A stretch of DNA of 64,000 bases from an uncultured Candidatus Saccharibacteria bacterium (lineage in GTDB: Bacteria > Patescibacteriota > Saccharimonadia > Saccharimonadales > UBA4665): positions 26,087-90,086 of the forward strand of contig CAZHYW010000003.1 of assembly GCA_964537115.1 (NCBI GenBank), written 5' to 3'. Of this stretch, positions 43,276-64,000 are shown in pieces. The notes beneath the pieces are model-generated. The model searched no databases, was not told the origin of the DNA, and saw nothing but the letters and a program-made list of their open reading frames with translations. Every line of letters begins with the position of its first letter. Position 1 is the stretch's first letter. The position numbers and the translations under genes were made by a program.

Positions 43276-44715
43276 TTAGTCTAGCTGACGAACTTTGATG
43301 GTATCGGTAGTGCCCACCACCCCAGGGTATTTACCGCTGGCCGTCACGACTATATCACCCTTTTTAAACACGCGAGTTTCGCGCAGAAAATCGGTGAGCT
43401 TTTCCGCCGCTTGGCGGCTGACCGGTCGTACGTAGCTTTTTACACCGTACACAATCGCCAGCTGTTGGGCCGTACGTGCATCATCGGTGACGGCCAGCAG
43501 CGGAATCTCGGGACGCTCAGCAGCAATAGTGAGTGCCGTGGCGCCAGATTTCGTTTCGGCCACTATTGCCGCCGCGCTAATGCTTTCACTCAAAGATATA
43601 ATGCCGCGACTAATGGCCAGCTGGCGCGAAACGGTGCGCTCTTCGTCACCTGGAAAGACGGCCTTTACCGGCGCGTGGCTTTGGGTGTACAGAATAACCC
43701 GTTTCATAATTTCTACGGCCTCCAGGGGGTATTGGCCGTTAGCGGTTTCGTCGCTTAACATTACACAGTCAGCACCTACCAGCACAGCAGTGGCCACATC
43801 ACTTACCTCGGCTCGCGTGGGCTCCGGCATCTCGGTCATACTGGCCAGCATTTGGGTGGCTACAATGGTCGGCCGACCATATTTTAGGCCCAGACCTATA
43901 ATTTGTCGCTGTACCATTGGTACGCTCTCTGCTGGAGTCTCCACGGCTAAGTCACCACGAGCTACCATGACCGCGTCGGCAGACTGCACAATGGCCTCAA
44001 TATTGTCTACTGCAAGTTTAGTCTCTACCTTGGCTATGAGCCGCCTGGGGCTGCCCAAATTTTTTATAAGGCGACGCATATGCTCAATATCGTGCGCCGA
44101 CTGTACAAAGCTCATACCCACATAGTCGATGTCCTGTTGGCTACCAAAAGCCAGATCAACCCGATCCTTCTCGGTAATTACGTCGCCTGAAAAGTCGGTG
44201 TCTGGCAAATTAATGCCTTTGCGTGCAATCAATATGCCATCGTTCTCAGCCTCAACATACACCACCCCATCCTTTACACTCGTAACCCGAGTGCGCACCT
44301 TGCCATCGTACAAATACAAGCGTTCACCGCGCTGTACTTTAGTGCTCAAATCGTACTGGGTGGGTATGATGCCAGTGGTCGTCCAGTCAGTTTTATAGCC
44401 AAAGCGTAGGCCGTAGCCCTTGTGCACTTGTATAATGTCGTCAAAATCTCCGAGGCGAATCTTAGGACCTTGCAAGTCTTGTATGATCGCTACTGGTTTA
44501 TGTAGCTCTTTGCTGGCTTTGCGTATCCAGACAATCTCCTCCAGCTTCTCGTCATGTGTACCGTGGCTGAAGTTAAGGCGCAGCCCATTGGCGCCCATGG
44601 CAATGAGCTTATGAATGGTCTCATAGCTGTGCGTTGCCGGACCAATCGTGACGATAATCTTCGTCCGTTTATAGTCATGCAAAGCCACTGGTTGTTTTGG
44701 GGAGAGCTCACCCAT
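43276..44715 (-). CDS. pyk: Pyruvate kinase
   Basis: RTKIIVTIGPA, MVARGDLAVE and other family motifs. Confidence 0.95.
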   Translation of the reverse strand: MGELSPKQPVALHDYKRTKIIVTIGPATHSYETIHKLIAMGANGLRLNFSHGTHDEKLEEIVWIRKASKELHKPVAIIQDLQGPKIRLGDFDDIIQVHKGYGLRFGYKTDWTTTGIIPTQYDLSTKVQRGERLYLYDGKVRTRVTSVKDGVVYVEAENDGILIARKGINLPDTDFSGDVITEKDRVDLAFGSQQDIDYVGMSFVQSAHDIEHMRRLIKNLGSPRRLIAKVETKLAVDNIEAIVQSADAVMVARGDLAVETPAESVPMVQRQIIGLGLKYGRPTIVATQMLASMTEMPEPTRAEVSDVATAVLVGADCVMLSDETANGQYPLEAVEIMKRVILYTQSHAPVKAVFPGDEERTVSRQLAISRGIISLSESISAAAIVAETKSGATALTIAAERPEIPLLAVTDDARTAQQLAIVYGVKSYVRPVSRQAAEKLTDFLRETRVFKKGDIVVTASGKYPGVVGTTDTIKVRQLD

Positions 44716-44765
44716 AGTTAGGCTTAGTGTAACCGCTAATGCTTAGCCGTTCAAGCGCTACAACC

Positions 44766-46679
44766 CTAGTTAAGGCTGGATTTCTCGTAAGTAGTGCCGT
44801 CCGACAGCAGTGCTGAGACAGTAAAACTTTGGCAGCCATCCGCACCTGAACAGCCAGCAGGCACATAGGCGTACTGGGTAGCCGTGGGCGTGGAGCCAAG
44901 CTGACTTTTAGTACCATCAGGGTCTTTGAGCGCTTCCGGGTCAAGACCTTTCATATTGGTTGCCAGCCAGCTGGCGTCGTTCATTTGCGCCAGCGTAGGG
45001 TAAAAACCGTTACTGGCAAAGTAGGCTTCTATGTGGGCATCGAGACTGTTGATGTCGGCCTCACGCTCACTATCCTTAGCCTTCGCCTGCTCGCCGCCTA
45101 GCAGTGTAGTGCTAGAGTCAACACTACCGCCCAAGCCAAAGGTATTTAGTACCTGTTGGATGGGTATGGCGCCAGTAGGCACAGTGATCTCTACTGGTTT
45201 GTTGGAAACTGCGGCATTCAGGGTAGCAGTTACGCTATATGGATCGCCCGAGTCGGTACTTTTTACCGAGAAGGTAGCTTTGGTACTGTTGGTCTTAAGA
45301 TCTACATCGGCGGTCATTTTGGTGTCCACCTTGCCAGATGCGTCGTGGCCGTTTACAAACAATGACAATTTGTCGCCACCTTGGTACGTTTGGCCCAGCT
45401 CGGTGTAACTGCCGGGGTCGGCTTTGTCGCTCACGCGAATTTTGTGAATCAGTTTGTAGTGGCCATCAATCCACATGTCAAAAGTGTTAGTAGATTTTAG
45501 GCTGTCGTCGGTTTGGCAATTGTGCTTGGCGGAGTCCCGAGCACTGGCTATCTCACTTGCTGTGTCGCCAGACAGATGCTTGTAGGCGTCGGTGGCAAAA
45601 AAGGCATCAGCCAGAGCGCTACAGTAAGCTCGCAGATGTGGAGTGTTTACACCAACTTTGTAGTGGTACGCCAAGACGCCATCTACTGTTTCTTTGCCTA
45701 CATAGCTCTGACGGACAAAGACAGCCTTATCTGGTGTCGTGCTAAATACATATTGTTGCGTTACGCCCATGGTCGCACGAGCCAACCCAGCAATATCTTG
45801 AGCCGACAGCTGAGTGGATGTGTGGCTACCACCACTCAGGTAGAGATCGTTGATGGATTGCAGATAGTCGCCACTTACCTCAATCCACTTGCCGTCATAG
45901 GACGAAATACCAGGCACAAACTCGTCGAGCCCCAAATCTTTAAAGCCGCTCAGCTGGAAGTAGATGTTTGGGTAAACGCTGCCAGCCGGAATCTGGCTAA
46001 GCACTTTGGCACTCAGGGTTTTGCTGCCGCTATCGCCCTTGAGTGTTACGTCGAGCCCACCATTCAGGCTAGTTTTGTCGAACGTGGTGTTAAACGAGCC
46101 TTTGTATGATGCACCTGCCAGTTCGGCATCGAGTGTGCCCGTAATGGCTGAGGTTTTATACGTTTCTAGCTTGTCGGCTGTAGTGGCAGACTGAACCAGA
46201 CTGTTCAGTGCTTTGCCCGACCGATTGATGCCGGTGTTCCAAACATGGCTCGGAGTATTTGGCAGGTACCAGGCAAAGACAGCGCCGCCCCCTATAAGTA
46301 GCGCTATCAGCGCTACGCCAGCCGCCAACCAGATCTTCTTGCTTCCCCGGCTGCGCCTAACGGCCGAACCACCGACGCTGCCTACTACCACGGGTGTACC
46401 CGTCAGACTTTCCTCCGGCGCCACCGGCATGCTCGATGATGGACCCCACGAAGGCGTGAGGGGCTGCGGTGGTGTGGTGGAGGCTTGTTCCGGGGGCGCG
46501 GCCGCAGAGCCAGAATGCATAGCAGCCGCTACAGGATCGACTGCGGGCTTAATGTCTGGCGATATTTGAACTGGTCCAGGCGTAGCCACGCGCTGCGGCT
46601 CAAAGGATGCTCCCTGAGGCATGCTCAGTGGTTTGTCTGAATCAGACGTGTTGGTAGATTGATGATTGGTAGGCTCCAT
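44766..46679 (-). CDS. Large membrane-anchored orphan protein with a C-terminal pilin-headgroup-like segment
   Basis: Pro-rich N-terminus and one TM. The last 110 aa or so (…KDSEREADINSLDAHIEAYFASNGFYP…C…C…) resemble the region after the N-terminal helix of type IV pilin-like proteins. Confidence 0.55.
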   Translation of the reverse strand: MEPTNHQSTNTSDSDKPLSMPQGASFEPQRVATPGPVQISPDIKPAVDPVAAAMHSGSAAAPPEQASTTPPQPLTPSWGPSSSMPVAPEESLTGTPVVVGSVGGSAVRRSRGSKKIWLAAGVALIALLIGGGAVFAWYLPNTPSHVWNTGINRSGKALNSLVQSATTADKLETYKTSAITGTLDAELAGASYKGSFNTTFDKTSLNGGLDVTLKGDSGSKTLSAKVLSQIPAGSVYPNIYFQLSGFKDLGLDEFVPGISSYDGKWIEVSGDYLQSINDLYLSGGSHTSTQLSAQDIAGLARATMGVTQQYVFSTTPDKAVFVRQSYVGKETVDGVLAYHYKVGVNTPHLRAYCSALADAFFATDAYKHLSGDTASEIASARDSAKHNCQTDDSLKSTNTFDMWIDGHYKLIHKIRVSDKADPGSYTELGQTYQGGDKLSLFVNGHDASGKVDTKMTADVDLKTNSTKATFSVKSTDSGDPYSVTATLNAAVSNKPVEITVPTGAIPIQQVLNTFGLGGSVDSSTTLLGGEQAKAKDSEREADINSLDAHIEAYFASNGFYPTLAQMNDASWLATNMKGLDPEALKDPDGTKSQLGSTPTATQYAYVPAGCSGADGCQSFTVSALLSDGTTYEKSSLN

Positions 46680-46794
46680 AGTTCCCCGCTTTAACTTTTT
46701 GTCGTGCTTATCCTTAAGCAGCAGTATAGCATGTCATCAACATGGTATAGCCAGCAATTATTCAGCTCTTTCTGTGTATGCGCACCGGGTGTAG

Positions 46795-48531
46795 TTATAC
46801 TGCAGCACGCGGCGACTGACCCGCAGTCTTGGGTAGAACAGTTTCTAGAGCCTTGACGAGTGTTGCCGGGTACAAACGCTCACTGCACAGGTGGTTGCTA
46901 ATGGCATTAATGGCCGCCAGCTGATCGCCAGCCTGAGAGTATGCCTCAATGATCCTATACATTATATTGTGCACCTCCACATGTGACACAGACACCGTTT
47001 GAGTCATAGTAAGCAGTTGGGCTGCTCGCTGCTCAGCATCTGGCAATCGGTGGTAGTAACTGAATGTGTCTAATGCGCCCCGCAAGGCAGCACGCAGCCC
47101 GTACTCAGACAGCCCCGCTTCGACAGTGCTCAGTTGAGCCGCGGCCGTAGCAGCGCGGCCCTCATCTCCTTGTTGGGTGGCGGCAGCTACACCGGCCACT
47201 GCTCGACGGTATTCCAGTTCGAGATCGCTGGTGAGGTCTTTCTGCATAGCCCGTTGCCAGGCAGCTTCATCGCCAGTGGCAGCGTAGATAGCCAGAAGCG
47301 CCTCGGCGGCCGTAGCCTCAAAGGGCGGATAGGCTTCTCCGGCGAGGGCGTCAGCGACATCGCACGCCAGAGTAACCTCCCCCAGCCCAACCAGACGCTG
47401 CAGCACAAAGCCATATGGATCAGACGGGCGCAGCAGTATAGGATTACTGTGTGCTGTGGCGAGCAGTTCAGCGTCTGAAAGATACGTGCCCAACAGTGTG
47501 GTTGCCTCCTCTGGCTGTGAGCCAAACTTTCGAGCACGAAGAAGGCTTAGCAGTTCGGTCAGCTGATCTGCACTCGGTGCCTTTTCGCCAATCTCCATCA
47601 TGAGTCTGTCAGTGGGTGATTTTGGCCAATCGTCCGGCAGGTCGTATTTTCCCCGTAGCAGGCCATAGATTGTGTCTTGAGCCCGGGGGTACTGCTCCGC
47701 TACGCCGGCTAGGGCGTCGGGGGCATGTTTTGCGATTTCTTGCATAAGGGACTCCAGCTTGCTGACGTCCACCCCTGCCAGAAAAGCGTCGTAAACCGCA
47801 TCGGCTGCCACTTCGTAGTATGCGCCTGCTTCGGTAGGATCGTTGAGTGTGGCCAGCCTGGCTCGGCCACCTTCCAAAACGGCGATTGCTTCCTGGTTGC
47901 CGTATTCCTCCATGAGAGGGCTATCGAGATACGCTTCAACCACACTGATGTCACCCGCATAGCTGGCTACATCCCGGGCAATGGCCAGTGCTAGCTTACG
48001 CGTATCCCGCACAAAACGTTCAGCTTGCCTTTCGCGCTCCAGGTGCATGGGTGCCAGCCTGAAGTCCTCGGGGTTAAACTTTTCGCTAACAGTCTTGAGC
48101 AGTTGATCTACGAATTTGGTTAGAGCGTCTGGAGAACCGTGGCGGCTTGCCGCCACCAGCCAGTTAGCCAGCGTTTCGTGGGTTTTCTCATGAGATTCTT
48201 GTATATGTGACTCATCTCCGACATCGAAGTATATATCCAAGGTGTCGTCACCACCCCTTTCGTGCCTGTCAAGCGCCATTGGGGTTCCATGCTCTAGGTC
48301 GGAGCCCAGAAACTGCCCAATTTCCTCAATATAGACCTGACCTATTGCTTCAAGATTATCGGCCAGAGCCCCTTCCGCCGCTATTCGGACGTCTGCGTCG
48401 GCATAGCGTAGCTGCAAATCAACCAACAAACCACCATCCGTTGTGGCCCGAGAGATGTCAAGCTGGTTGATGACCTGACGCAATTCGGGCAGTATTTGCT
48501 CCGGCTGACCGCTAAGTTCTGGGGTACCCAT
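46795..48531 (-). CDS. Hypothetical cytoplasmic alpha-helical protein
   Basis: 578-aa ORF. I recognise no family. Confidence 0.55.
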   Translation of the reverse strand: MGTPELSGQPEQILPELRQVINQLDISRATTDGGLLVDLQLRYADADVRIAAEGALADNLEAIGQVYIEEIGQFLGSDLEHGTPMALDRHERGGDDTLDIYFDVGDESHIQESHEKTHETLANWLVAASRHGSPDALTKFVDQLLKTVSEKFNPEDFRLAPMHLERERQAERFVRDTRKLALAIARDVASYAGDISVVEAYLDSPLMEEYGNQEAIAVLEGGRARLATLNDPTEAGAYYEVAADAVYDAFLAGVDVSKLESLMQEIAKHAPDALAGVAEQYPRAQDTIYGLLRGKYDLPDDWPKSPTDRLMMEIGEKAPSADQLTELLSLLRARKFGSQPEEATTLLGTYLSDAELLATAHSNPILLRPSDPYGFVLQRLVGLGEVTLACDVADALAGEAYPPFEATAAEALLAIYAATGDEAAWQRAMQKDLTSDLELEYRRAVAGVAAATQQGDEGRAATAAAQLSTVEAGLSEYGLRAALRGALDTFSYYHRLPDAEQRAAQLLTMTQTVSVSHVEVHNIMYRIIEAYSQAGDQLAAINAISNHLCSERLYPATLVKALETVLPKTAGQSPRAAV

Positions 48532-48640
48532 ATAGTTAGGGATTGTACCAAGTTTGATGCAGGAAATTCTAGGCTGGCCAAGGTAAGGTTAGGGCTGGCC
48601 ATCAGACGGTTATGGTTTTAAGACCTAACGAACGCGCCGG

Positions 48641-49894
48641 TTAATAGCTCTGACACCACATTGAGGAGTAGGCAGGCAGCTCAGCGCCGTAATAGCCTTG
48701 GCCGCTGTTGGAGTCGCTGACAAAGTCGGGGAACATTAGGTTCACGCCCATGGTAATAGCTTTGGAGCCGCTGGGGTTAGCGAAGGCCCAGGTGTCATAT
48801 CCTAAGGTTTCGCCTTCGTGGCCATAGATGGTTTGGTTGCAGCTATCGGCCACTGGCGTCACTTGGCTCAAGTCCCAGCTCCAAATTCCCAAACCGGCAC
48901 CGAATCCGGGAGGGAACAGACCTTCGGGTAGCGTGATCGGTACTGTGGTTTTCATTTGCGTGGTCAGGTTCGCCGGTAGCAGGTGTCCGCCCACTAGCGC
49001 TTTCATGAACGTGTTTAGGTCGGCCGGGTTGCTCACTACCGCACCGGTGGCCCACAAGAAGCTGGGGTTGTAGTTGGTCCAGTCATCGGTGAATTGGCTA
49101 AACGGCATGCCTACAATAATGGTGCCATCGGCTTCTACGCGGTATGAATAGCCGTGAGCAAAGGGCGCCGTTAGGCTGGGGTCGGTTACCGGAAAACTGG
49201 TGTTGGCAAGGTGCAGCGGCGTAATGAGACGCGTCTGAATCTGGTGCTGAATACTGTCATGCGTTACCGCCTCCACCACCATGCCAACCAGTATAAAGTT
49301 AGTGTCGGAGTACTCGGCTTGGTTCGGAGGTAGCTGATGGCGCGGCTGGTTAGCTATCATGGCCACAAGCTGATTGGGTGTCCAGGTTTTGAAACGACTG
49401 ACCTGGCCACGGGCAATCTGGTAAATGAGCGAATTACTGTCCGCTTCCAAATAGTCAGGAACCCCGGAGGTATGATTGAGGAGCTGCTTGACCGTAACGT
49501 GGTTGGCGTACGGCAGTATGCCGGGCACCCAATGTCCAAGCGTGTCACTCAGGCTAAGTTTGTGCTCGGCCACCAACTGCAGCGCTACCGCACCGGTAAA
49601 CGACTTCGTAACACTGGCCGCTCGCAGTTTCATGTTCGCCTGAGTATGCTGCCCGGTTTGTAGGTTCGCCACACCAGCTGCCCCGGTATTGCCGAACGAG
49701 TCCGTGGCCCACGCACCCGGAAAGCCGCCGTTTACTACCCGCTGCACACCACTTTGTAAGTATGACGTACCGTTGGCTGCCGCGTGGCCAGACCAAATAC
49801 TTAAGGCCGGCGCCAATCCAACTGTCAGTACACTAAGACTCAAGAACCCCGCCTGGCGAAAACGCACTAGCTTACCAATTAGTTTTTGCGCCAT
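48641..49894 (-). CDS. Secreted serine hydrolase, beta-lactamase class C/PBP4*-like family
   Basis: Signal peptide plus SVTK (SxxK) and YSDTN (YxN) motifs. Confidence 0.85.
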   Translation of the reverse strand: MAQKLIGKLVRFRQAGFLSLSVLTVGLAPALSIWSGHAAANGTSYLQSGVQRVVNGGFPGAWATDSFGNTGAAGVANLQTGQHTQANMKLRAASVTKSFTGAVALQLVAEHKLSLSDTLGHWVPGILPYANHVTVKQLLNHTSGVPDYLEADSNSLIYQIARGQVSRFKTWTPNQLVAMIANQPRHQLPPNQAEYSDTNFILVGMVVEAVTHDSIQHQIQTRLITPLHLANTSFPVTDPSLTAPFAHGYSYRVEADGTIIVGMPFSQFTDDWTNYNPSFLWATGAVVSNPADLNTFMKALVGGHLLPANLTTQMKTTVPITLPEGLFPPGFGAGLGIWSWDLSQVTPVADSCNQTIYGHEGETLGYDTWAFANPSGSKAITMGVNLMFPDFVSDSNSGQGYYGAELPAYSSMWCQSY

Positions 49895-50039
49895 GTTACC
49901 TGCCTCCGTTTACAATCTACGGCCAGCATACAGGTTGGCTGCGCCCGCTGGCTGTACGAAGACTTACTAAACGTGAAGCATAAAAAGTCGGCCGATATAG
50001 ATACGATCCGCGAAAGAAAATGAGTATACTAGGGCTACT

Positions 50040-50843
50040 ATGAGCGCAGCGCGCAGCCTAACCATTTCCAATATATTTGTCTACCCTGTTAAATCGTGTG
50101 GCGGACTGGCTTTAGACGAAGCCAGCATTGTTGACACCGGTTTTGACCACGACCGCGAGTGGATGGTAGTGAACGAAGACGGATGGTTTATTACCCAGCG
50201 CCAGTACCCATTTATGGCGACCATTCGACCTACCGTCGGTGGCAATATACTCCGGCTGGAAGCACCGGGAGTCAAGGCTCTAGAAGTGCCGATTACATCG
50301 GCGTATAAGCGCCCGGTAACCGTTTGGACTAGTGACCTCGAAGCTTACGACCAAGGTGATACCGCTGCCGAATGGTTTAGCAAGCTGCTCGGTCGGGAGT
50401 GCCGGCTGGTTCGGAAAACACCATCCATGCGCAAGATCGGTCAAAAATACCAGGTTACGGGCAGTGAACTAGTGGGGTTCGCCGATAGCTACCCCTTTTT
50501 GCTTGCCTCGCTGGCCTCACTGGATGACCTAAATGCGCACATGGATGCATCCGTGCCCATCACCCGTTTTCGGCCAAACATTGTGGTGGCAGGCGGCGAG
50601 GCGTTTCAGGAGGACTCTTGGCGCAGAATTAAAATTGGCCAGGTTACCTTCCGAGTCGTTAAACCATGTAGCCGGTGCGAAATGATAAACGTCGACCAGC
50701 AAACCGGCGAACGCGACGTGCAGCCACTCGACGCACTGGGCGGCTACCGCCGGCACGCCAAGGGCATATGGTTTGGACAGAACCTCGTGCAAGAAACGAC
50801 GGGCGTCATCCGCGTAGGCGATGCGCTCGAGGTGTTGGAGTAG
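50040..50843 (+). CDS. MOSC-domain protein (MOSC_N + MOSC, YcbX-like)
   Basis: IFVYPVKSCGG... N-terminal barrel and the conserved Cys in VKPCSRCEMINVDQ. Confidence 0.88.
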   Translation: MSAARSLTISNIFVYPVKSCGGLALDEASIVDTGFDHDREWMVVNEDGWFITQRQYPFMATIRPTVGGNILRLEAPGVKALEVPITSAYKRPVTVWTSDLEAYDQGDTAAEWFSKLLGRECRLVRKTPSMRKIGQKYQVTGSELVGFADSYPFLLASLASLDDLNAHMDASVPITRFRPNIVVAGGEAFQEDSWRRIKIGQVTFRVVKPCSRCEMINVDQQTGERDVQPLDALGGYRRHAKGIWFGQNLVQETTGVIRVGDALEVLE

Positions 50844-50850
50844 CAGTCTC

Positions 50851-51516
50851 ATGAAAAACCAGTGGCAAAAAGCTGTCATTACAGACGTCACCCAAGCATC
50901 AGAGGACATGCTGTCGCTAACAGTGCAGCCAGAACAATGGGTGCCCTACAAAGCGGGACAATGTTATGAGACTCGCATCCCGGGTCTCAGGCTCATGCGT
51001 AAATACTCCGTGGTGTCGTCTCCCCATCATAAAAACAAGTTGGAATTTGGCGTACAGCTATTGCCGTATGGCGCCGTGTCTCCCCAGATGTGGAAATTGA
51101 AAGCCGGCGACTCGCTCGATATCCGCGGACCTTTTGGCACCTTTACGTGGGACACGTCCATGGACGGCCCAGTTATTCTGATTGGCGGCGGCTCAGGCAT
51201 CACCCCGCTTATTAGCATGTACCACTACATCCGCTCGGTGCGCCCCAGTGGCGAGATAGTTTTTATAGTCAGCGCCAAACACGCCGGCCGCGTCATGCAT
51301 TATGAGCAGTTAAAACAGCACATCAGCACACGTTTTACGGCTACTGAGGGTCGAGTCGACAAAGACTTTTTAACCAGCCTAATCGGCCAGTACGTAACCA
51401 ACTCGAAAACACATTGTTATGTCTGCGGCCCCAATAGTTTTGCTGCCGATACGGTAGACATTTTGCTGGAAATGGGTTTCCCCGATACAGTCATCATGTC
51501 GGAGGGCTTCAGCTAG
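50851..51516 (+). CDS. Ferredoxin-NADP reductase-like FAD/NAD(P)-binding oxidoreductase
   Basis: RKYSVVS (RxYS) and GGGSGITP motifs. The ATG lies 8 nt after the MOSC stop. Confidence 0.85.
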   Translation: MKNQWQKAVITDVTQASEDMLSLTVQPEQWVPYKAGQCYETRIPGLRLMRKYSVVSSPHHKNKLEFGVQLLPYGAVSPQMWKLKAGDSLDIRGPFGTFTWDTSMDGPVILIGGGSGITPLISMYHYIRSVRPSGEIVFIVSAKHAGRVMHYEQLKQHISTRFTATEGRVDKDFLTSLIGQYVTNSKTHCYVCGPNSFAADTVDILLEMGFPDTVIMSEGFS

Positions 51517-51682
51517 AACGCTCTAACTTGCGCCAGGTTATTGAACACTCTATACTTGCGGGCAGTTATGTCTAATTACTATGTTAGCAATTACTCTTGT
51601 TGTCCGTGTCAACCATGCTAATTGGTTGCAGCCTTTACATTTTTCTCTGAATTCAAACTAAATCTCCAGCTTGCAAACCAAT

Positions 51683-51744
51683 GGCGGTGAAAGCCTAGCG
51701 GTTAGGCATTGGTTTAAAAGCTGGTTCGACTCCAGTCGCCGCCT
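51683..51744 (+). pseudogene. tRNA-Cys-like module lacking a contiguous anticodon arm
   Basis: Acceptor GGCGGTG/CGCCGCC (7 bp, one G-U), D-arm GCC-TAGCGGTTA-GGC, T-arm GCTGG-TTCGACT-CCAGT and discriminator T. Only TTGGTTTAAAA sits where the anticodon arm should be. A Cys-type loop TTGCAAA+CCAAT sits immediately 5' (51671-51682). Confidence 0.45.
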
Positions 51745-51770
51745 CTAAACAATACTAGGAGGAAAATGGT

Positions 51771-52010
51771 ATGAAACAGGCAAAAACAATTCAGGCGTTT
51801 ATGGTTGGCGCCGCTCATTATGTGGTAAGTGGCACGAACGGCGACGAGGCAGTACTGCGCATAGACTACCAACACAATACTTACTCACTCGAGAGTCAGC
51901 GCACACCTTTGAATCCCGCATTTCAACAAGAAGTATCCGAGATCGCAGAAGACCTGTTACGACGTAAACACGGCATAAACTTTGCGAATAAACTAACCCA
52001 TCCGGAGTAG
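51771..52010 (+). CDS. Hypothetical protein
   Basis: 79-aa ORF with a strong SD TAGGAGG. Confidence 0.5.
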   Translation: MKQAKTIQAFMVGAAHYVVSGTNGDEAVLRIDYQHNTYSLESQRTPLNPAFQQEVSEIAEDLLRRKHGINFANKLTHPE

Positions 52011-52043
52011 GGCTGTCCGGCATTGCACCCAATGAGCAGAACT

Positions 52044-52658
52044 TCAAGCCGTAGTTTTTCTGTTGGAGCGAAAGCGATACCACTTATCCCAGGTGTCCGT
52101 ACAGACTTCAAGTTTATCACCGGTTATCTGTGGGTTTTGCAGGGCTTTTAGAAGTGGCTCATACAGTAGTTCACGGTTTGCTTCAGACACGCCGGCTAAA
52201 TGGATGAACACCGTTTTGCCAGAGGTATCCGTAAGCCGTAGAGAGCAGATATTATCATACGTATACGCCACCAGCATAACTTCTTTAACCTTAGCCAAGG
52301 CCGATAACTGAATACCACGCCGGCCCTGTATGCCGTACGTCGTGAGTGTATCGCCGTCTAGGACCGTTTTAAACGGGAAACGGTTGGGACGAATTGCCAA
52401 GCCAATAATTATGAGACTAAAGATGGCGACGAACCACAGGTCCGATAATGCCCGATGATTAATAGCATATACAGCTACCCCGATTGTAATGACCACCATA
52501 AACAAAAGTGTTAAAACGGCTAAGACATACATGGCTATCCAAGAGGCCGAGGCTTTGGCCACGATTACCCCTACGGGTTGACCAGCCACAGGTTCCACTG
52601 GAGTTTGTTGCGTAGCAGGTTGTTGACCAGGTTGATTTTGGGTGTCCACTGCTTTCAA
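52044..52658 (-). CDS. Hypothetical membrane protein (TTG start)
   Basis: 204-aa ORF with a Gln/Pro-rich N-terminus and 2-3 TM segments. Confidence 0.5.
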   Translation of the reverse strand: MKAVDTQNQPGQQPATQQTPVEPVAGQPVGVIVAKASASWIAMYVLAVLTLLFMVVITIGVAVYAINHRALSDLWFVAIFSLIIIGLAIRPNRFPFKTVLDGDTLTTYGIQGRRGIQLSALAKVKEVMLVAYTYDNICSLRLTDTSGKTVFIHLAGVSEANRELLYEPLLKALQNPQITGDKLEVCTDTWDKWYRFRSNRKTTA

Positions 52659-52687
52659 TCATACCCTAGCAATGCTAGAAATGGTAG

Positions 52688-52916
52688 CTCGTTGAGGACG
52701 GAGTGGATTTGATGTCTTTGCCAAGCTTATTGGTGAGCCCGCGGAGAGTACTTTGTATACCGTCGTCGCATGCTCGGCGCGAGCTCCGGTAAACGTCGTC
52801 CGCGGTTCACAGCCAGCTACGCTGGCTGGCCGCTTCAACCCATGCTCGGAATCAATTCCTGCGCGTGGGTCCTCGCGAACGAACTCCTCCGGAGTTCGGA
52901 TTTTCTGCGAAAATCC
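52688..52916. other. Hairpin-dense region without convincing coding potential (candidate structured RNA or oriT-like DNA)
   Basis: Perfect hairpins AGCCAGC-TAC-GCTGGCT (52811-52827), GAACTCC-TCC-GGAGTTC (52881-52897) and GGATTTTC-TGC-GAAAATCC (52898-52916). There is also a long-range GAGGAC/GTCCTC pairing. Confidence 0.3.
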
Positions 52917-52920
52917 TACC

Positions 52921-61502: not shown

Positions 61503-61539
61503 ACAGCTATGATACCCTATCTGGCATGCCCAAGGTCGT

Positions 61540-62568
61540 TTAGCCCTGTACTACTCGAATCTTCGAGAAGTTTTTGCCCATCAGGCCAGCCATCTTAACA
61601 TCTTGCCAATCGAACTTAGCGGCCTCTACCTGTTTTGGCGAGAGAACCAGCATATCGTAGCCGTCACTAGACTGCTCTAGTACGCCGACACTTGCCCAGA
61701 ATTTAGCGATGGATCGTTTGTTGGCACCGATGGCCAGATAGCCAGGGAAAGGCGCAGCCGAGCAGGCTATGCTTTGTCGATTTGCTAAGTAAGGCACTAG
61801 GCTTTTGGTGGCGAATATGGCTCCGTGCTGTAGCTCTACTTTTTCGCGCCAATCGGGGTCTTTATCCTGACCTGGAAGGAGTCGCACATTTAACTCCGTA
61901 GTTTTCTTTTCTGCGTCGCCCATTACCGGCAAACTACCCCCACTGGCCGCCAGTGCGGCTTCCTTGGCCGCATCAAGCTCGGCCTCGTAGGCTGCGCCGT
62001 CAACTACTTCGGAATGCCGTTTGTAGGTAAAACGTAGGTTTTGCGGGAGAAGGCTGTTGACGAGCTGGATCGCGCTTTTAAAGGATTCAGCGTACCGATC
62101 GGTCTCGGAGCGCTTGAGATTGTTCAAATACTCTACTGATACGTCCTGGCCATAAAACTCAAAATCAACACCCCTGGGGTATACACTAGTAATGGTCTTT
62201 GCCCATTTCGCCCGATAGATAAGCCCGAACAGTTCGGCCCAATCTGCCTCTGGCGCTTCGGCAAACCTCCACAGCTTATTGCCGCCGAATAGCTGGCCGA
62301 TTTGCAAGGGCTGGTCATTCTCCACGGCGTATTTAATCGCATCCCTGACCACCGAAATAGTCTGCTCATCCGCCTTCCATTTGCGGAATTTTTTAGACAT
62401 CACTTTGGCAAAAATGGCATCTTCAAGCGGAGTGGTACCGATGTCTTGCGGCTGTATCGGTTCGGCGAGCGATTTAAGTGTGGATTCAATGTATTCTTGT
62501 GCTGTCATAGTATTTTGGAGATGCGAGGTAGACATGAACCTACCGTGGATAGCTTTGCAAGCTAACAC
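61540..62568 (-). CDS. Hypothetical protein
   Basis: 342-aa ORF (alternative ATG at 62535), first gene of a three-gene minus-strand cluster. Confidence 0.5.
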   Translation of the reverse strand: MLACKAIHGRFMSTSHLQNTMTAQEYIESTLKSLAEPIQPQDIGTTPLEDAIFAKVMSKKFRKWKADEQTISVVRDAIKYAVENDQPLQIGQLFGGNKLWRFAEAPEADWAELFGLIYRAKWAKTITSVYPRGVDFEFYGQDVSVEYLNNLKRSETDRYAESFKSAIQLVNSLLPQNLRFTYKRHSEVVDGAAYEAELDAAKEAALAASGGSLPVMGDAEKKTTELNVRLLPGQDKDPDWREKVELQHGAIFATKSLVPYLANRQSIACSAAPFPGYLAIGANKRSIAKFWASVGVLEQSSDGYDMLVLSPKQVEAAKFDWQDVKMAGLMGKNFSKIRVVQG

Positions 62569-62647
62569 CTATTCTCGGTCATCGCATCACGGACTATTAT
62601 ACGGTAGGCTTATCTGCATCTGAAATATCTTTTGATATTATAGGTTC

Positions 62648-62992
62648 ATGAACATACAGACTGTAACCATCACCGTATCTGATCTAAAGAAATCAAAAGA
62701 GTTTTATGAAAACTTGCTTGGCTTCACGCTTGGAGATTATTGGGCACCCACAAACTGGCAGTCATACAAGTTTAACGATCAGCTTTTCGGAATTAGAGAG
62801 AAGCCTGGTTTCAAGCGAGCGGAGTCGTTTGACATCACTAACTTTGAGCTAGATGACGTAGACAGCTTGTGGGCTAAGGTAAAAGACAAGGTTAAGGTTG
62901 TTGAGAAGCTAGCACCTACACCCTGGGGCTCGTATAGATTCGTTATTTTAGACCCTGATGGCTATCAATTAGCTTTTGTCGCTAAGCAGTAA
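62648..62992 (+). CDS. VOC/glyoxalase-bleomycin resistance family protein
   Basis: TVSDLKKSKEFYENLLGF...DPDGYQLAF. Confidence 0.85.
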   Translation: MNIQTVTITVSDLKKSKEFYENLLGFTLGDYWAPTNWQSYKFNDQLFGIREKPGFKRAESFDITNFELDDVDSLWAKVKDKVKVVEKLAPTPWGSYRFVILDPDGYQLAFVAKQ

Positions 62993-63060
62993 AACAGCAG
63001 GCTCAAACCTATTCGCCTGCGGCAAATAGGGACTTCCCATTTGATTACAAATGAGAAGTT

Positions 63061-63852
63061 CTATAGTTGGCTCAATGAAAGCGACCCATCAGAGTCCGTC
63101 AAATCCTGCCACGTATCAAGCTTATCTTGAGTTGTGATGAAAGCCCGCAGCCCATCATCCGCATCCTCGAGAATTCGAGATGCTTTCTTCACTAAGCGCT
63201 TCTGCAAACTGGCATTGTCACAAACAAGTAATACCTTTGGAAAATCACTCTCGGTTCCAGCCTCCCACTCGCCGCTATCCGCGTAGTCCACGTACTGCTT
63301 TAATCTGCGCACAACCGTAAAGAATGGCTTACTGTTCTGTAGATACTCCAGAAAGAAGTCCTTTTCGCTGCCATCGATGTCGAGATGCATATAAACGCTC
63401 GGCACAAAATCCTCGAAGTAGTCGTATTTGGCTAACTGGCTCTTGGTGAGGAACTTTAGGCTGTCTCCGTATTGGGCCTTGAGCTTGCAATATAAACCGA
63501 ACATGTCTAGGCAGTATTGGATAAACTCCTCGGAGGTGGTCTTATCCTTGTAGATCGCTTTGATGTTCACCGCTTTATCCGGGCGGCTTTCTTGCAATAC
63601 ACGAGCACCGGCAGGTAGCAAATAATAAGCTGCTGGTTTGCCCTGTATACGATAGCTACTATCAAAGCGTTTGCCGATAAGCCCTTGGTCTTGCAGTATC
63701 GAAAGTCGTTTAAAGACGAACGACCGATCCTTCTTACCAAAATACTGCGCGATCAAATCATTACTACCAAACCTAAACTTATATAACAGCTCCAAGACTT
63801 CTAGCTGTTCCGTGTTTAATTTTTTTCTATGCTTCTGTTCTGACTTATCCAT
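63061..63852 (-). CDS. Replication-relaxation-family-like protein
   Basis: N-terminal wHTH pattern LNTEQLEVLELLYKFRFGSNDLIAQYF...RLSILQDQGLIGKR...YYLLPAGARVL, typical of plasmid/ICE Replic_Relax proteins. Confidence 0.5.
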   Translation of the reverse strand: MDKSEQKHRKKLNTEQLEVLELLYKFRFGSNDLIAQYFGKKDRSFVFKRLSILQDQGLIGKRFDSSYRIQGKPAAYYLLPAGARVLQESRPDKAVNIKAIYKDKTTSEEFIQYCLDMFGLYCKLKAQYGDSLKFLTKSQLAKYDYFEDFVPSVYMHLDIDGSEKDFFLEYLQNSKPFFTVVRRLKQYVDYADSGEWEAGTESDFPKVLLVCDNASLQKRLVKKASRILEDADDGLRAFITTQDKLDTWQDLTDSDGSLSLSQL

Positions 63853-64000
63853 ATCTATTCATTCACATATAAACTTTTTCAATCTTCTAAAAATTAAACA
63901 CTACACAATTATGAGTCTTATCTTCTATATATTTATATATTAGTAAGGGAGAAATATAAAGAGAGAGTAAGAGAGGTAGGAGGAGAGTAGAAAGTTCAAC

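Follow-up and report, generated by a model that had tools for sequence, protein, structure and literature searches.

Among described mobile elements, those closest to the one reported here are the streptococcal integrative mobilisable elements (IMEs) of IME_Class_8, compact elements that combine a serine integrase, a MOBC relaxase and a VirD4 coupling protein (PMC5357655). MOBC relaxases make up the Pfam family Replic_Relax (PF13814), which has a PD-(D/E)XK fold and has TraX of pAD1 as its type enzyme (PMC3424549, PMC12857230). In the Patescibacteria, a survey found a chromosomal MPF-FATA-like type IV secretion system (T4SS), 5,713 VirD4-like genes and 109 relaxases in 103 genomes, with MOBC (58) as the commonest class; over all classes, 39 of these 109 genes lay near a t4cp gene (PMC12102498). 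That survey (Quinonero-Coronel et al. 2025) gives counts only, and no elements, integrases or attachment (att) sites are described in it. Here we analyse a 64,000-nt stretch of DNA (the window) from an uncultured Candidatus Saccharibacteria bacterium, corresponding to positions 26087-90086 of contig C3 (CAZHYW010000003.1) of a 1.16-Mb genome in 54 contigs (G000, assembly GCA_964537115.1). [quoted passage not shown] Throughout, genomes, contigs and loci are cited by G, C and L numbers.

Like IME_Class_8 (Coluzzi et al. 2017), the element has the same three signature proteins, is compact and pore-free and carries its integrase at one edge, and it presumably depends on a resident T4SS. It differs in its host, which belongs to the Patescibacteria and not to the Bacillota, in the high divergence of its proteins, in its target, a tRNA 3′ end, and in the presence in this copy of a second serine recombinase and a tRNA gene. 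Its helper, moreover, would be a chromosomal, apparently essential T4SS and not an integrative and conjugative element (ICE) or a plasmid. [quoted passage not shown] The genome has an MPF-FATA-like T4SS near dnaA, as in the published survey, and the element is one instance of what was counted there as a relaxase close to a t4cp gene. The architecture is of a known kind, and the element belongs to a large family in Patescibacteria that has so far only been counted in the literature.

The ends of the element were placed from both sides. Contig C3 stops inside the tRNA-Glu(UUC) gene; extending it by exact overlap alone had no success, and its continuation was found via the tRNA and synteny with a related genome, G005. 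The gene's missing 5′ portion is found in the opening 34 nt of contig C17, which overlaps C3 by 13 nt. The rebuilt tRNA-Glu(UUC) gene is 100% identical to the copies in three genomes of the genus (G005, G013 and G001), and the genes of C17 are syntenic with those upstream of tRNA-Glu in G005, G016 and G013. The other boundary, sought beyond the window, thus lies 1.9 kb on, where a second large serine recombinase gene (LSR2) runs into this tRNA-Glu. At the left, gene content had put the end between 52968 and 53071, and generic repeat searches, including blastn-short, returned no att repeats; a 9-nt repeat was seen only after synteny with G013 had fixed the interval. On the tRNA strand, TAGGGTCACCA marks the exact point from which the window is homologous to G013, with a terminator next to it, and the displaced tRNA-Glu 3′ end, GGGTCACCA, occurs once in the 64 kb on either strand. 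The hairpin that follows resembles the terminators found after tRNA-Glu in unoccupied genomes. Positions 52800-52967 are 84.5% identical to L033:11638-11802 of G013, and at least the right part of this hairpin-dense segment is explained as attL plus the native terminator.

Comparable junctions occur in related elements. The far junction, TCACCA plus a terminator, is also present in G005, L044, L048 and L021; in G005 it lies 125 nt past the terminal nuclease gene and is followed by a strong terminator, and L021 is built alike. Homology between L044 and L048 extends from tRNA-Glu to a sharp left edge starting TATGGTGAACC, which copies part of the tRNA 3′ end in antisense. The core common to these junctions is TCACCA (tRNA nucleotides 71-76), and the element therefore runs from window position 52966 to window-equivalent position 65925 (numbering continued past the window), a single element of 12,960 bp with its ends placed by the att repeats and tRNA-Glu. 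These repeats give it defined ends at a specific target, are unique in the window, coincide with a break in synteny and recur in the same design in four other elements. The original prediction, which was made from the window's letters, had started the island at 51517; the element proper begins about 52966 instead.

The prediction had also read a shift to AT-rich DNA from about 51.5 kb, and this shift is pronounced. The G+C content falls there from ~0.54 to 0.45-0.50 and stays low up to the contig end, and a 2-kb profile finds in the element region the longest low-GC run of the genome. The element has a G+C content of 47.4%, compared with a mean of 53.6% (sd 1.0, minimum 50.6) for 616 other genome windows of 12,960 bp (z = -6.1). 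No window of equal size is as low, making this the most AT-rich 13 kb of the genome.

LSR2, the recombinase at the tRNA-Glu edge, scores above the Pfam cut-offs for Resolvase and Recombinase, reaches 24.1 bits for Zn_ribbon_recom, just below the cut-off of 25.3, and contains the nucleophile motif IRVSTEKQ, read from its sequence. Its open reading frame (ORF) overlaps tRNA-Glu by 41 nt here, in G005 and in G016, and its last 13 codons and stop are the antisense of the tRNA-Glu gene. At its tRNA end, where it continues into the tRNA sequence, the frame reads ...CTT ATG GTG ACC CCG...; in the attL region it reads ...TTG GTG ACC CTA..., remains open for 34 more codons and ends two bases before the start of the first gene of the element, which encodes an Mrr-type nuclease. 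In five elements (this one and four others) the LSR2 frame stays open past the core for 31-48 codons, with both other frames closed, and three distant elements (this one, G005 and L021) have in common the motif W-(N/K)-(S/T)-(L/I)...L...L-(E/V)-(E/D)-(L/I)-G. In compact Daviesbacteria-type elements, a search for the detached tail gave neither a clear match nor a clear absence. The att core thus appears to lie inside the LSR2 reading frame, and with the crossover placed in this core, integration would swap the C terminus of the enzyme. Given the open, conserved frame past attL, the excised circle would encode an LSR2 of 594 aa, as against 570 aa in the integrated form.

ICEs that target rumA already provide a case of an att site within a serine integrase gene (Ambroset et al. 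2016, PMC4701971), and the putative tail swap is a variant of their design and not a new principle. In those streptococcal and clostridial elements, which have a single serine integrase, the integrated and excised forms likewise differ in the integrase C terminus. There, however, the target is a protein-coding gene whose 3′ end is exchanged too, and the frame changes; the window element targets the 3′ end of a tRNA gene, keeps its frame across the core and has a tail that is conserved in distant elements. In all LSR2-type elements examined, a small ORF (43-60 aa) with the motif E-(E/Q)-R-x-x-L-(I/L)-A-(D/N)-(I/L)-(I/L)-(L/V)-E lies upstream of LSR2 and is translationally coupled to it. The product of the version found here, 43 aa long, is a possible accessory or directionality factor.

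The second signature protein is the membrane-anchored ATPase, a putative type IV coupling protein (T4CP). It has TrwB_AAD_bind, T4SS-DNA_transf and TraG-D_C matches above the Pfam cut-offs, and its Walker A (GGTGNGKTT) and Walker B (LYVDEF) motifs are invariant. Because the AlphaFold model as a whole is poor, only its better half was used for comparison (residues 450-700 are fairly modelled). This C-terminal half superposes on TrwB (template modelling (TM) score 0.57-0.63, root mean square deviation (rmsd) ~5 Å, E ~1e-8, for a low-confidence model), and it also matches VirB4, Cag-beta, DotL and HerA folds. A sequence search of the PDB with the T4CP profile gave no match, and the protein is at most 30% identical to any plasmid protein. 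It belongs to a full-length accessory clade with 45-61% identity that is present in ~14 of 40 related genomes and is patchy even within the genus, whereas core T4CP paralogues, at ~33% identity, are found in all 40.

The third is a putative relaxase, read in the original prediction as Replic_Relax-like. It matches PF13814 with 50.9 bits (cut-off 25.3) and, among PHROGs, phrog_9381, 'replication initiation by nicking' (4.8e-8). Its model (predicted local distance difference test (pLDDT) score 88.8) has an N-terminal winged helix-turn-helix (wHTH) and an alpha/beta domain, for which the top Foldseek folds are MarR/PadR wHTH proteins and FokI. This resembles the MOBC proteins TraX (pAD1) and MobC (CloDF13), which are PF13814 members predicted to combine an N-terminal wHTH with a restriction-endonuclease-like alpha/beta domain (summarised in PMC12857230 from Francia et al. 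2013), although the sequence is very distant and the putative PD-motif Asp is a Ser. Of 16 positions conserved in at least 85% of 151 relatives, 15 are matched. Here the catalytic residues of MOBC were taken from alignment conservation only, by which E169 is kept and D152 is lost. Because it lacks the conserved PD-motif Asp, this copy is possibly transfer-defective, and its relaxase may be dead; the copy in G016 keeps both this Asp and the His found in most relatives. Upstream of the relaxase gene, in the intergenic region before LSR2, lies a block with a (TA)n palindrome and then the C-free tract noticed in the original prediction, which is real. The block is conserved in this genome, G016, G005 and G039 despite relaxase identities of 31-50%, and is a candidate origin of transfer (oriT) or, equally, a candidate promoter/leader. 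A second Replic_Relax paralogue (302 aa) is encoded at C16:9525-10433 of the same genome, where G+C is again low; its neighbours are two P-loop kinase-like genes and one for a zinc-ribbon protein of 313 aa, and the 31-nt terminator sequence downstream of the paralogue shares 97% identity with window positions 63000-63030.

Searches of Pfam, NCBIfam and PHROGs matched no ORF of the element to a mating-pore gene. Thus, the window element lacks the VirB4 and pore genes of its own that mark an ICE. Elsewhere in the genome, contig C9 encodes, beside dnaA, dnaN and recF, a VirB4-like ATPase (P-loop_TraG 1.6e-26, AAA_10) and a PrgI homologue; a TrbL/VirB6 match there is weak (20.4 bits, below the Pfam cut-off of 25.9). 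The closest relative, G005, has at the same chromosomal site a 23-kb att-bounded element (DATIIP010000017.1; C17:68335-91321; loci L020 and L027), flanked as here by a beta-lactamase-like gene on one side and tRNA-Glu on the other. It encodes LSR2, Replic_Relax, an XRE regulator, a VirB2-type pilin, a pilin-VirB6 fusion, VirB4, a T4CP and a PLD-like nuclease. Because it adds the pilin, pilin-VirB6 and VirB4 genes, it looks self-transmissible (a candidate ICE), and the window island looks like a mobilisable version of it.

The genomes of 185,579 species yielded, on scanning, 21 loci of the accessory T4CP clade, hosted by Saccharibacteria, Daviesbacteria and other Patescibacteria, with a few contigs binned elsewhere. 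A Replic_Relax gene lay within the fetched flank of 11 of the 21, compared with 2 of 59 loci of core-type T4CPs, and 11 of the 21 had a serine recombinase. The module around the accessory T4CP consists of a gene for tRNA-Glu, -Gln or -Leu, a large serine recombinase (LSR) gene reading into it, a divergent Replic_Relax gene, variable cargo and the ATPase gene, the last often accompanied by an XRE gene and a conserved 90-aa gene; the order tRNA, LSR, Replic_Relax, cargo, T4CP is seen in 7 of 12 relatives' loci. G016, from a different genus, has the whole architecture of the window, including both recombinases. At tRNA-Glu, the elements of L044 (7869-19070) and L048 (8846-19425) are 74-81% identical in DNA, and their hosts differ in flanking genes and in flank G+C (~0.52 in one, 0.30-0.43 in the other). 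Such alike elements in differing hosts are direct evidence of transfer between hosts. A profile of the relaxase clade matches 87 of 301 sampled Saccharimonadia species (~29%) and 58 of 158 genera, often in several copies, and, out of 1.84 billion representatives, at least 698 clusters formed at 50% identity (E<1e-30). These counts, made with our own profile, are far above the 109 relaxases published for the phylum.

Unoccupied sites were also found. In ten genomes of the genus or family, tRNA-Glu(UUC) is directly followed by a terminator hairpin and is free of a recombinase gene. In five occupied genomes, the antisense of the LSR2 3′ end follows tRNA-Glu, with a conserved hairpin and T-run that could replace the tRNA terminator.

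Together, these observations bear out the reading of the island as an integrative mobilisable or conjugative element: it has att repeats at a tRNA, an integrase at its edge, a putative MOBC-type relaxase and a VirD4-like protein without a pore, and a patchy distribution with unoccupied relatives. Gene order is not conserved in relatives, composition differs from the rest of the genome, and profile hidden Markov models (HMMs) support both the ATPase and the recombinase assignment. We propose that LSR2 would recombine the TCACCA-containing core of the tRNA with a matching core in the element. Integration would leave an intact tRNA at one end and displaced GGGTCACCA plus the native tRNA terminator at the other, and it would replace the conserved tail of ~34 residues of LSR2 by 13 residues from the tRNA antisense, with excision restoring the long form. 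The predicted circle junction is ...AAATCTCTTATGGTGACCCTACCGACC..., that is, ...AAATCTCTTA-TGGTGA-CCCTACCGACC..., and the predicted empty site is ...CGCGGGGTCACCA-AATAAAGAACGTCACC.... By assumption, the XRE regulator holds the element silent. Once the element is excised, the Replic_Relax protein would bind oriT and nick it, the conserved block upstream of its gene being the candidate, and the DNA would pass from the element's own VirD4-like ATPase to the chromosomal T4SS of the host on C9, next to dnaA. By this scheme the element may still be active at present. Near-identical backbones in unrelated hosts and the patchy distribution are indirect evidence for excision and conjugative mobilisation; mobility and use of the host T4SS are both inferred.

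The positions of all features are collected in Table 1.

Table 1 Features of the element and its left flank, in window coordinates (continued past the window where marked as equivalent)
Feature	Position	Strand	Basis and remarks
Low-GC stretch outside the element	51517-52956		Between FAD oxidoreductase gene and attL; G+C 48.2%
tRNA-like fragment, 60 nt	51684-51743		Rfam tRNA 26.8 bits, cut-off 29
79-aa ORF	51771-52010		Strong AGGAGG Shine-Dalgarno
204-aa membrane protein	52044-52658	-	
Hairpin-dense segment	52800-52956		With native tRNA-Glu terminator
attL core, displaced tRNA-Glu 3′ end (GGGTCACCA)	52957-52965	-	Same strand as tRNA-Glu
Detached 3′ end of LSR2 frame	52966-53069	+	Conserved C-terminal tail
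Membrane-anchored Mrr-type nuclease	53072-53674	+	Mrr_cat E=2.5e-24; two N-terminal hydrophobic helices
90-aa conserved-family gene	53619-53891	+	Without match in any HMM library
150-aa orphan	53897-54349	-	Marginal PHROG match phrog_25635, E=0.0085
Class-II Ser-like tRNA, 91 nt, UCU (Arg) anticodon	54412-54502	+	ARAGORN
LSR1, large serine recombinase, 486 aa	54656-56116	-	Last gene of three-gene operon
149-aa gene	56234-56683	-	Conserved next to XRE in G016, G005, L045
85-aa gene	56664-56921	-	Upstream of LSR1, divergent from XRE; overlaps 149-aa ORF
XRE-family regulator	57013-57261	+	HTH_3 2.5e-13; divergent from LSR1 operon, just upstream of T4CP gene
VirD4/TraD-like T4CP, 856 aa, membrane anchored	57349-59919	+	Pfam, NCBIfam
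PhzF-like, half length (N-terminal half only)	59916-60587	-	Pfam; cargo (block 59916-62992)
D-2-hydroxyacid dehydrogenase (2-Hacid_dh)	60600-61502	-	Pfam; cargo
342-aa orphan	61540-62568	-	No match in Pfam, NCBIfam, PADLOC, PHROGs; cargo
VOC/Glyoxalase	62648-62992	+	Pfam; cargo
Replic_Relax (MOBC-type) putative relaxase, 263 aa	63061-63852	-	PF13814 2.6e-13
Start of relaxase-LSR2 intergenic region	63853-64000		(TA)n palindrome, then 71-nt C-free polypurine tract, 63926-63996
43-aa ORF coupled to LSR2	Equivalent 64122-64253 (L001 1209-1340; L001 = C3 89000-92065)		Directly upstream of LSR2
LSR2, large serine recombinase, 570 aa	Equivalent 64254-65966	+	Beyond the window
tRNA-Glu(UUC)	Equivalent 65926-66000	-	Completed by start of C17

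Several observations weigh against this account. The direct repeat is short (9 nt here, 6 nt elsewhere), and the empty-site comparison is mixed, with ten relatives having an unoccupied tRNA-Glu but the syntenic G013 not being a clean empty site, as 1.6 kb of other genes lie between its tRNA and the displaced repeat. The ATPase model has low confidence (pLDDT 58.9 overall), VirB4 scores as well against it as TrwB does, and the sequence matches fall far below the NCBIfam equivalog cut-offs. A tblastn search of the PLSDB plasmids found no detectable relative of the relaxase, and MOBC enzymes form no known covalent intermediate, with the chemistry of transfer unclear even for the type members (PMC12857230). 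At the sole mismatch among the conserved relaxase positions, S152 replaces an Asp that is present in 131 of 151 relatives (Ser in 4), and a Tyr stands where 103 of the 151 (68%) have His. The loss of the Asp would suit an immobilised remnant, that is, a former IME or ICE that is now a fixed, decaying island kept for its cargo or nuclease genes, as would the half-length PhzF-like gene, the debris of older insertions next to attL and the lack of the VirB2, VirB6 and VirB4 genes that G005 carries at the same site. We consider such a remnant possible but less likely than not: no backbone ORF is broken, both recombinases keep their catalytic motifs and the ATPase its Walker motifs, the two att copies agree at all 9 nt, and the composition is still far from that of the host, suggesting recent arrival. 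Twenty family members lack the Asp, so the position may be dispensable. A further difficulty is the first recombinase (LSR1), for which no partner att site was found; nor was a partner repeat of the nearby tRNA(UCU) 3′ end found on the right strand. The original prediction had allowed for two elements in tandem, split at this tRNA. A simple tandem split is rejected, as the att repeats enclose tRNA(UCU), which is accordingly internal and not a boundary, but the idea of two elements survives in another form. Between tRNA(UCU) and the stop of LSR1 lie 153 nt, compared with 150-160 nt in L023, L024 and L059, three elements at tRNA-Gln in which an LSR1-type enzyme is the sole edge integrase; terminator layout is alike at the two kinds of junction, and the post-CCA motif is similar (GTAGTT versus ATAGAA). 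From this geometry the element is probably a composite of two related elements. That it arose by fusion of an LSR1-type with an LSR2-type element, through recombination between shared XRE-T4CP-relaxase backbones, is quite possible, if short of an even chance, and is compatible with the preferred reading. In the simplest elements (L044 and L048) the XRE and 90-aa genes are adjacent, and here the LSR1 operon, the tRNA and the 150-aa orphan intervene. Such a fusion has to contend with the presence of only one T4CP, one relaxase and one XRE gene, with the missing partner repeat and with the genes left of tRNA(UCU), which belong to an LSR2-type terminal module; G016 and L061, moreover, have LSR1 in the same place without the tRNA, suggesting that the arrangement was inherited as a unit.

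A different objection concerns function. The ATPase and the Replic_Relax protein might act in replicating or segregating the excised element or in defence against phages, with spread by natural transformation or another route. PF13814 is named for replication as well as relaxation and has also been predicted to be a transcriptional regulator (PMC3424549), and the PHROG match of the relaxase is to replication initiation; the ATPase matches mad8 (4.6e-16) and HerA defence profiles and an unannotated phage family (phrog_5156, 1.4e-51). The T4CP homologue of Saccharibacteria was found to be non-essential, their T4SS is believed to have been co-opted to other functions (PMC12102498), and the bacteria are naturally competent (PMC12857230). 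We nevertheless regard this as improbable, because a T4CP, a MOBC protein and a serine integrase form a described mobilisation module (PMC5357655), their association is specific to one accessory T4CP clade, and the att-bounded element of G005 joins the trio to a full pilin-VirB6-VirB4 set. A defence island as primary explanation was rejected, as its evidence comes down to nuclease-domain and P-loop matches. A prophage or phage satellite is extremely unlikely. Temperate phages often carry large serine recombinases and XRE switches, and two proteins match PHROG families, but Pfam and PHROGs identify no capsid, portal, terminase, tail or lysis genes among the ORFs, the sole 'terminase' match being a P-loop stretch of 45 residues, and 13 kb is too small for a tailed phage. 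The original prediction had likewise found no capsid, tail or T4SS pore gene in the window. An integrative mobilisable element remains our preferred reading.

The remaining genes of the element fall into a left module, the LSR1 region and cargo, and the families named for them in the original prediction are confirmed by Pfam above curated cut-offs. The PADLOC matches of the Mrr-type nuclease cover the nuclease domain only (ZorD, type IV restriction endonuclease). Its homologues are linked to LSR1, XRE and T4CP genes in L061 (64% identity) and L047 (50%), and a PLD-like nuclease takes its position in L044, L048, G005 and L021. Homologues of the 90-aa gene adjoin XRE and T4CP genes or the terminal nuclease gene in L014, L019, L021, L044, L048 and L063. 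In other genomes, the Mrr and 90-aa genes make up the terminal module of this element family, with the PLD-like nuclease replacing Mrr in most members. For the 150-aa orphan, searches of Pfam, NCBIfam and PADLOC gave nothing significant, and related loci lack a homologue.

The tRNA(UCU) gene is real. It has a G73 discriminator and a long variable arm, its ends and T-arm are like those of the genome's four tRNA-Ser genes, and no copy occurs in any related locus fetched; a normal tRNA-Arg(UCU) gene is present on C6. A promoter-like site lies upstream of it at 54377-54404. LSR1 has Resolvase (3.7e-18) and Recombinase (4.6e-15) domains and a Zn_ribbon_recom match of 3.3e-4 (21.4 bits, below the cut-off of 25.3); its best NCBIfam match is CcrB, and it is 21% identical to LSR2. 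Both enzymes keep the Ser nucleophile (RVSS in LSR1, RVST in LSR2). The LSR1 operon and tRNA(UCU) look like a captured junction of a related LSR1-type element. For the 85-aa and 149-aa proteins, which have no family match, a role in recombination directionality is our guess. Apart from tRNA sequence, the best-conserved DNA of the element is that of the XRE gene with its promoter region (78.6% identity to G005). Between the T4CP and relaxase genes, every related element has different genes; of those found here, the PhzF-like gene is also within the G005 element (66% identity), and the VOC protein has a paralogue on C10 (59%).

The AT-rich DNA between 51517 and attL lies outside the element. At the drop in G+C lie the 79-aa ORF and, before it, a tRNA-like fragment that has the acceptor, D-arm and T-arm of a tRNA and lacks the anticodon arm. 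The ORFs of the stretch have no homologues in any related element. None of its features recur in related elements, and it probably consists of what earlier insertions at this hot spot left behind.

Further left, from the end of the pyruvate kinase gene (43276-44715) to the island, positions 44716-51516 are variable in the genus and have a normal G+C content (54.3%); they encode two large orphans (637 and 578 aa), a beta-lactamase-fold protein, a MOSC protein and a FAD/NAD oxidoreductase. As the beta-lactamase-like and FAD-oxidoreductase genes are each present in only 2 of 14 genomes of the genus, these flanking genes were useless as synteny anchors, and the tRNA-Glu sequence worked. At least nine contigs of the genome (C1, C2, C3/C17, C5, C20, C27, C33, C47 and C48) begin or end within ~130 nt of a tRNA gene, which would fit strain-level variation of tRNA-linked islands among the cells sampled or an assembler effect.

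The copy described here is an ordinary, composite and possibly defective member of its family, and its value lies in that family. The original prediction had placed it in a reduced genome of the candidate phyla radiation (CPR), rightly, as the public relatives are Candidatus Saccharibacteria or Saccharimonadales. The family is coherent, with defined ends, a divergent MOBC-type protein, its own coupling ATPase and a tRNA-targeting serine integrase, and some members carry a complete pilin-VirB6-VirB4 set. Its att sites, candidate oriT and two predicted integrase isoforms are substrates for testing conjugation in Saccharibacteria, and the element could be a natural vehicle for genetic tools in cultivable Saccharibacteria. 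The chromosomal T4SS of Patescibacteria is widespread and is essential in the one species tested. We tentatively suggest, as an idea more doubtful than the mobilisable element itself, that tRNA-targeting elements with an LSR, a MOBC-like protein and a T4CP, together with VirB4-carrying kin such as that of G005, may be the missing conjugative cargo of this T4SS. An apparatus regarded as essential and co-opted would then still move DNA between epibiont cells, with the tail swap acting as a switch between integration and excision, and a divergent relaxase clade that MOB typing has largely missed would be present in ~30% of Saccharimonadia species.

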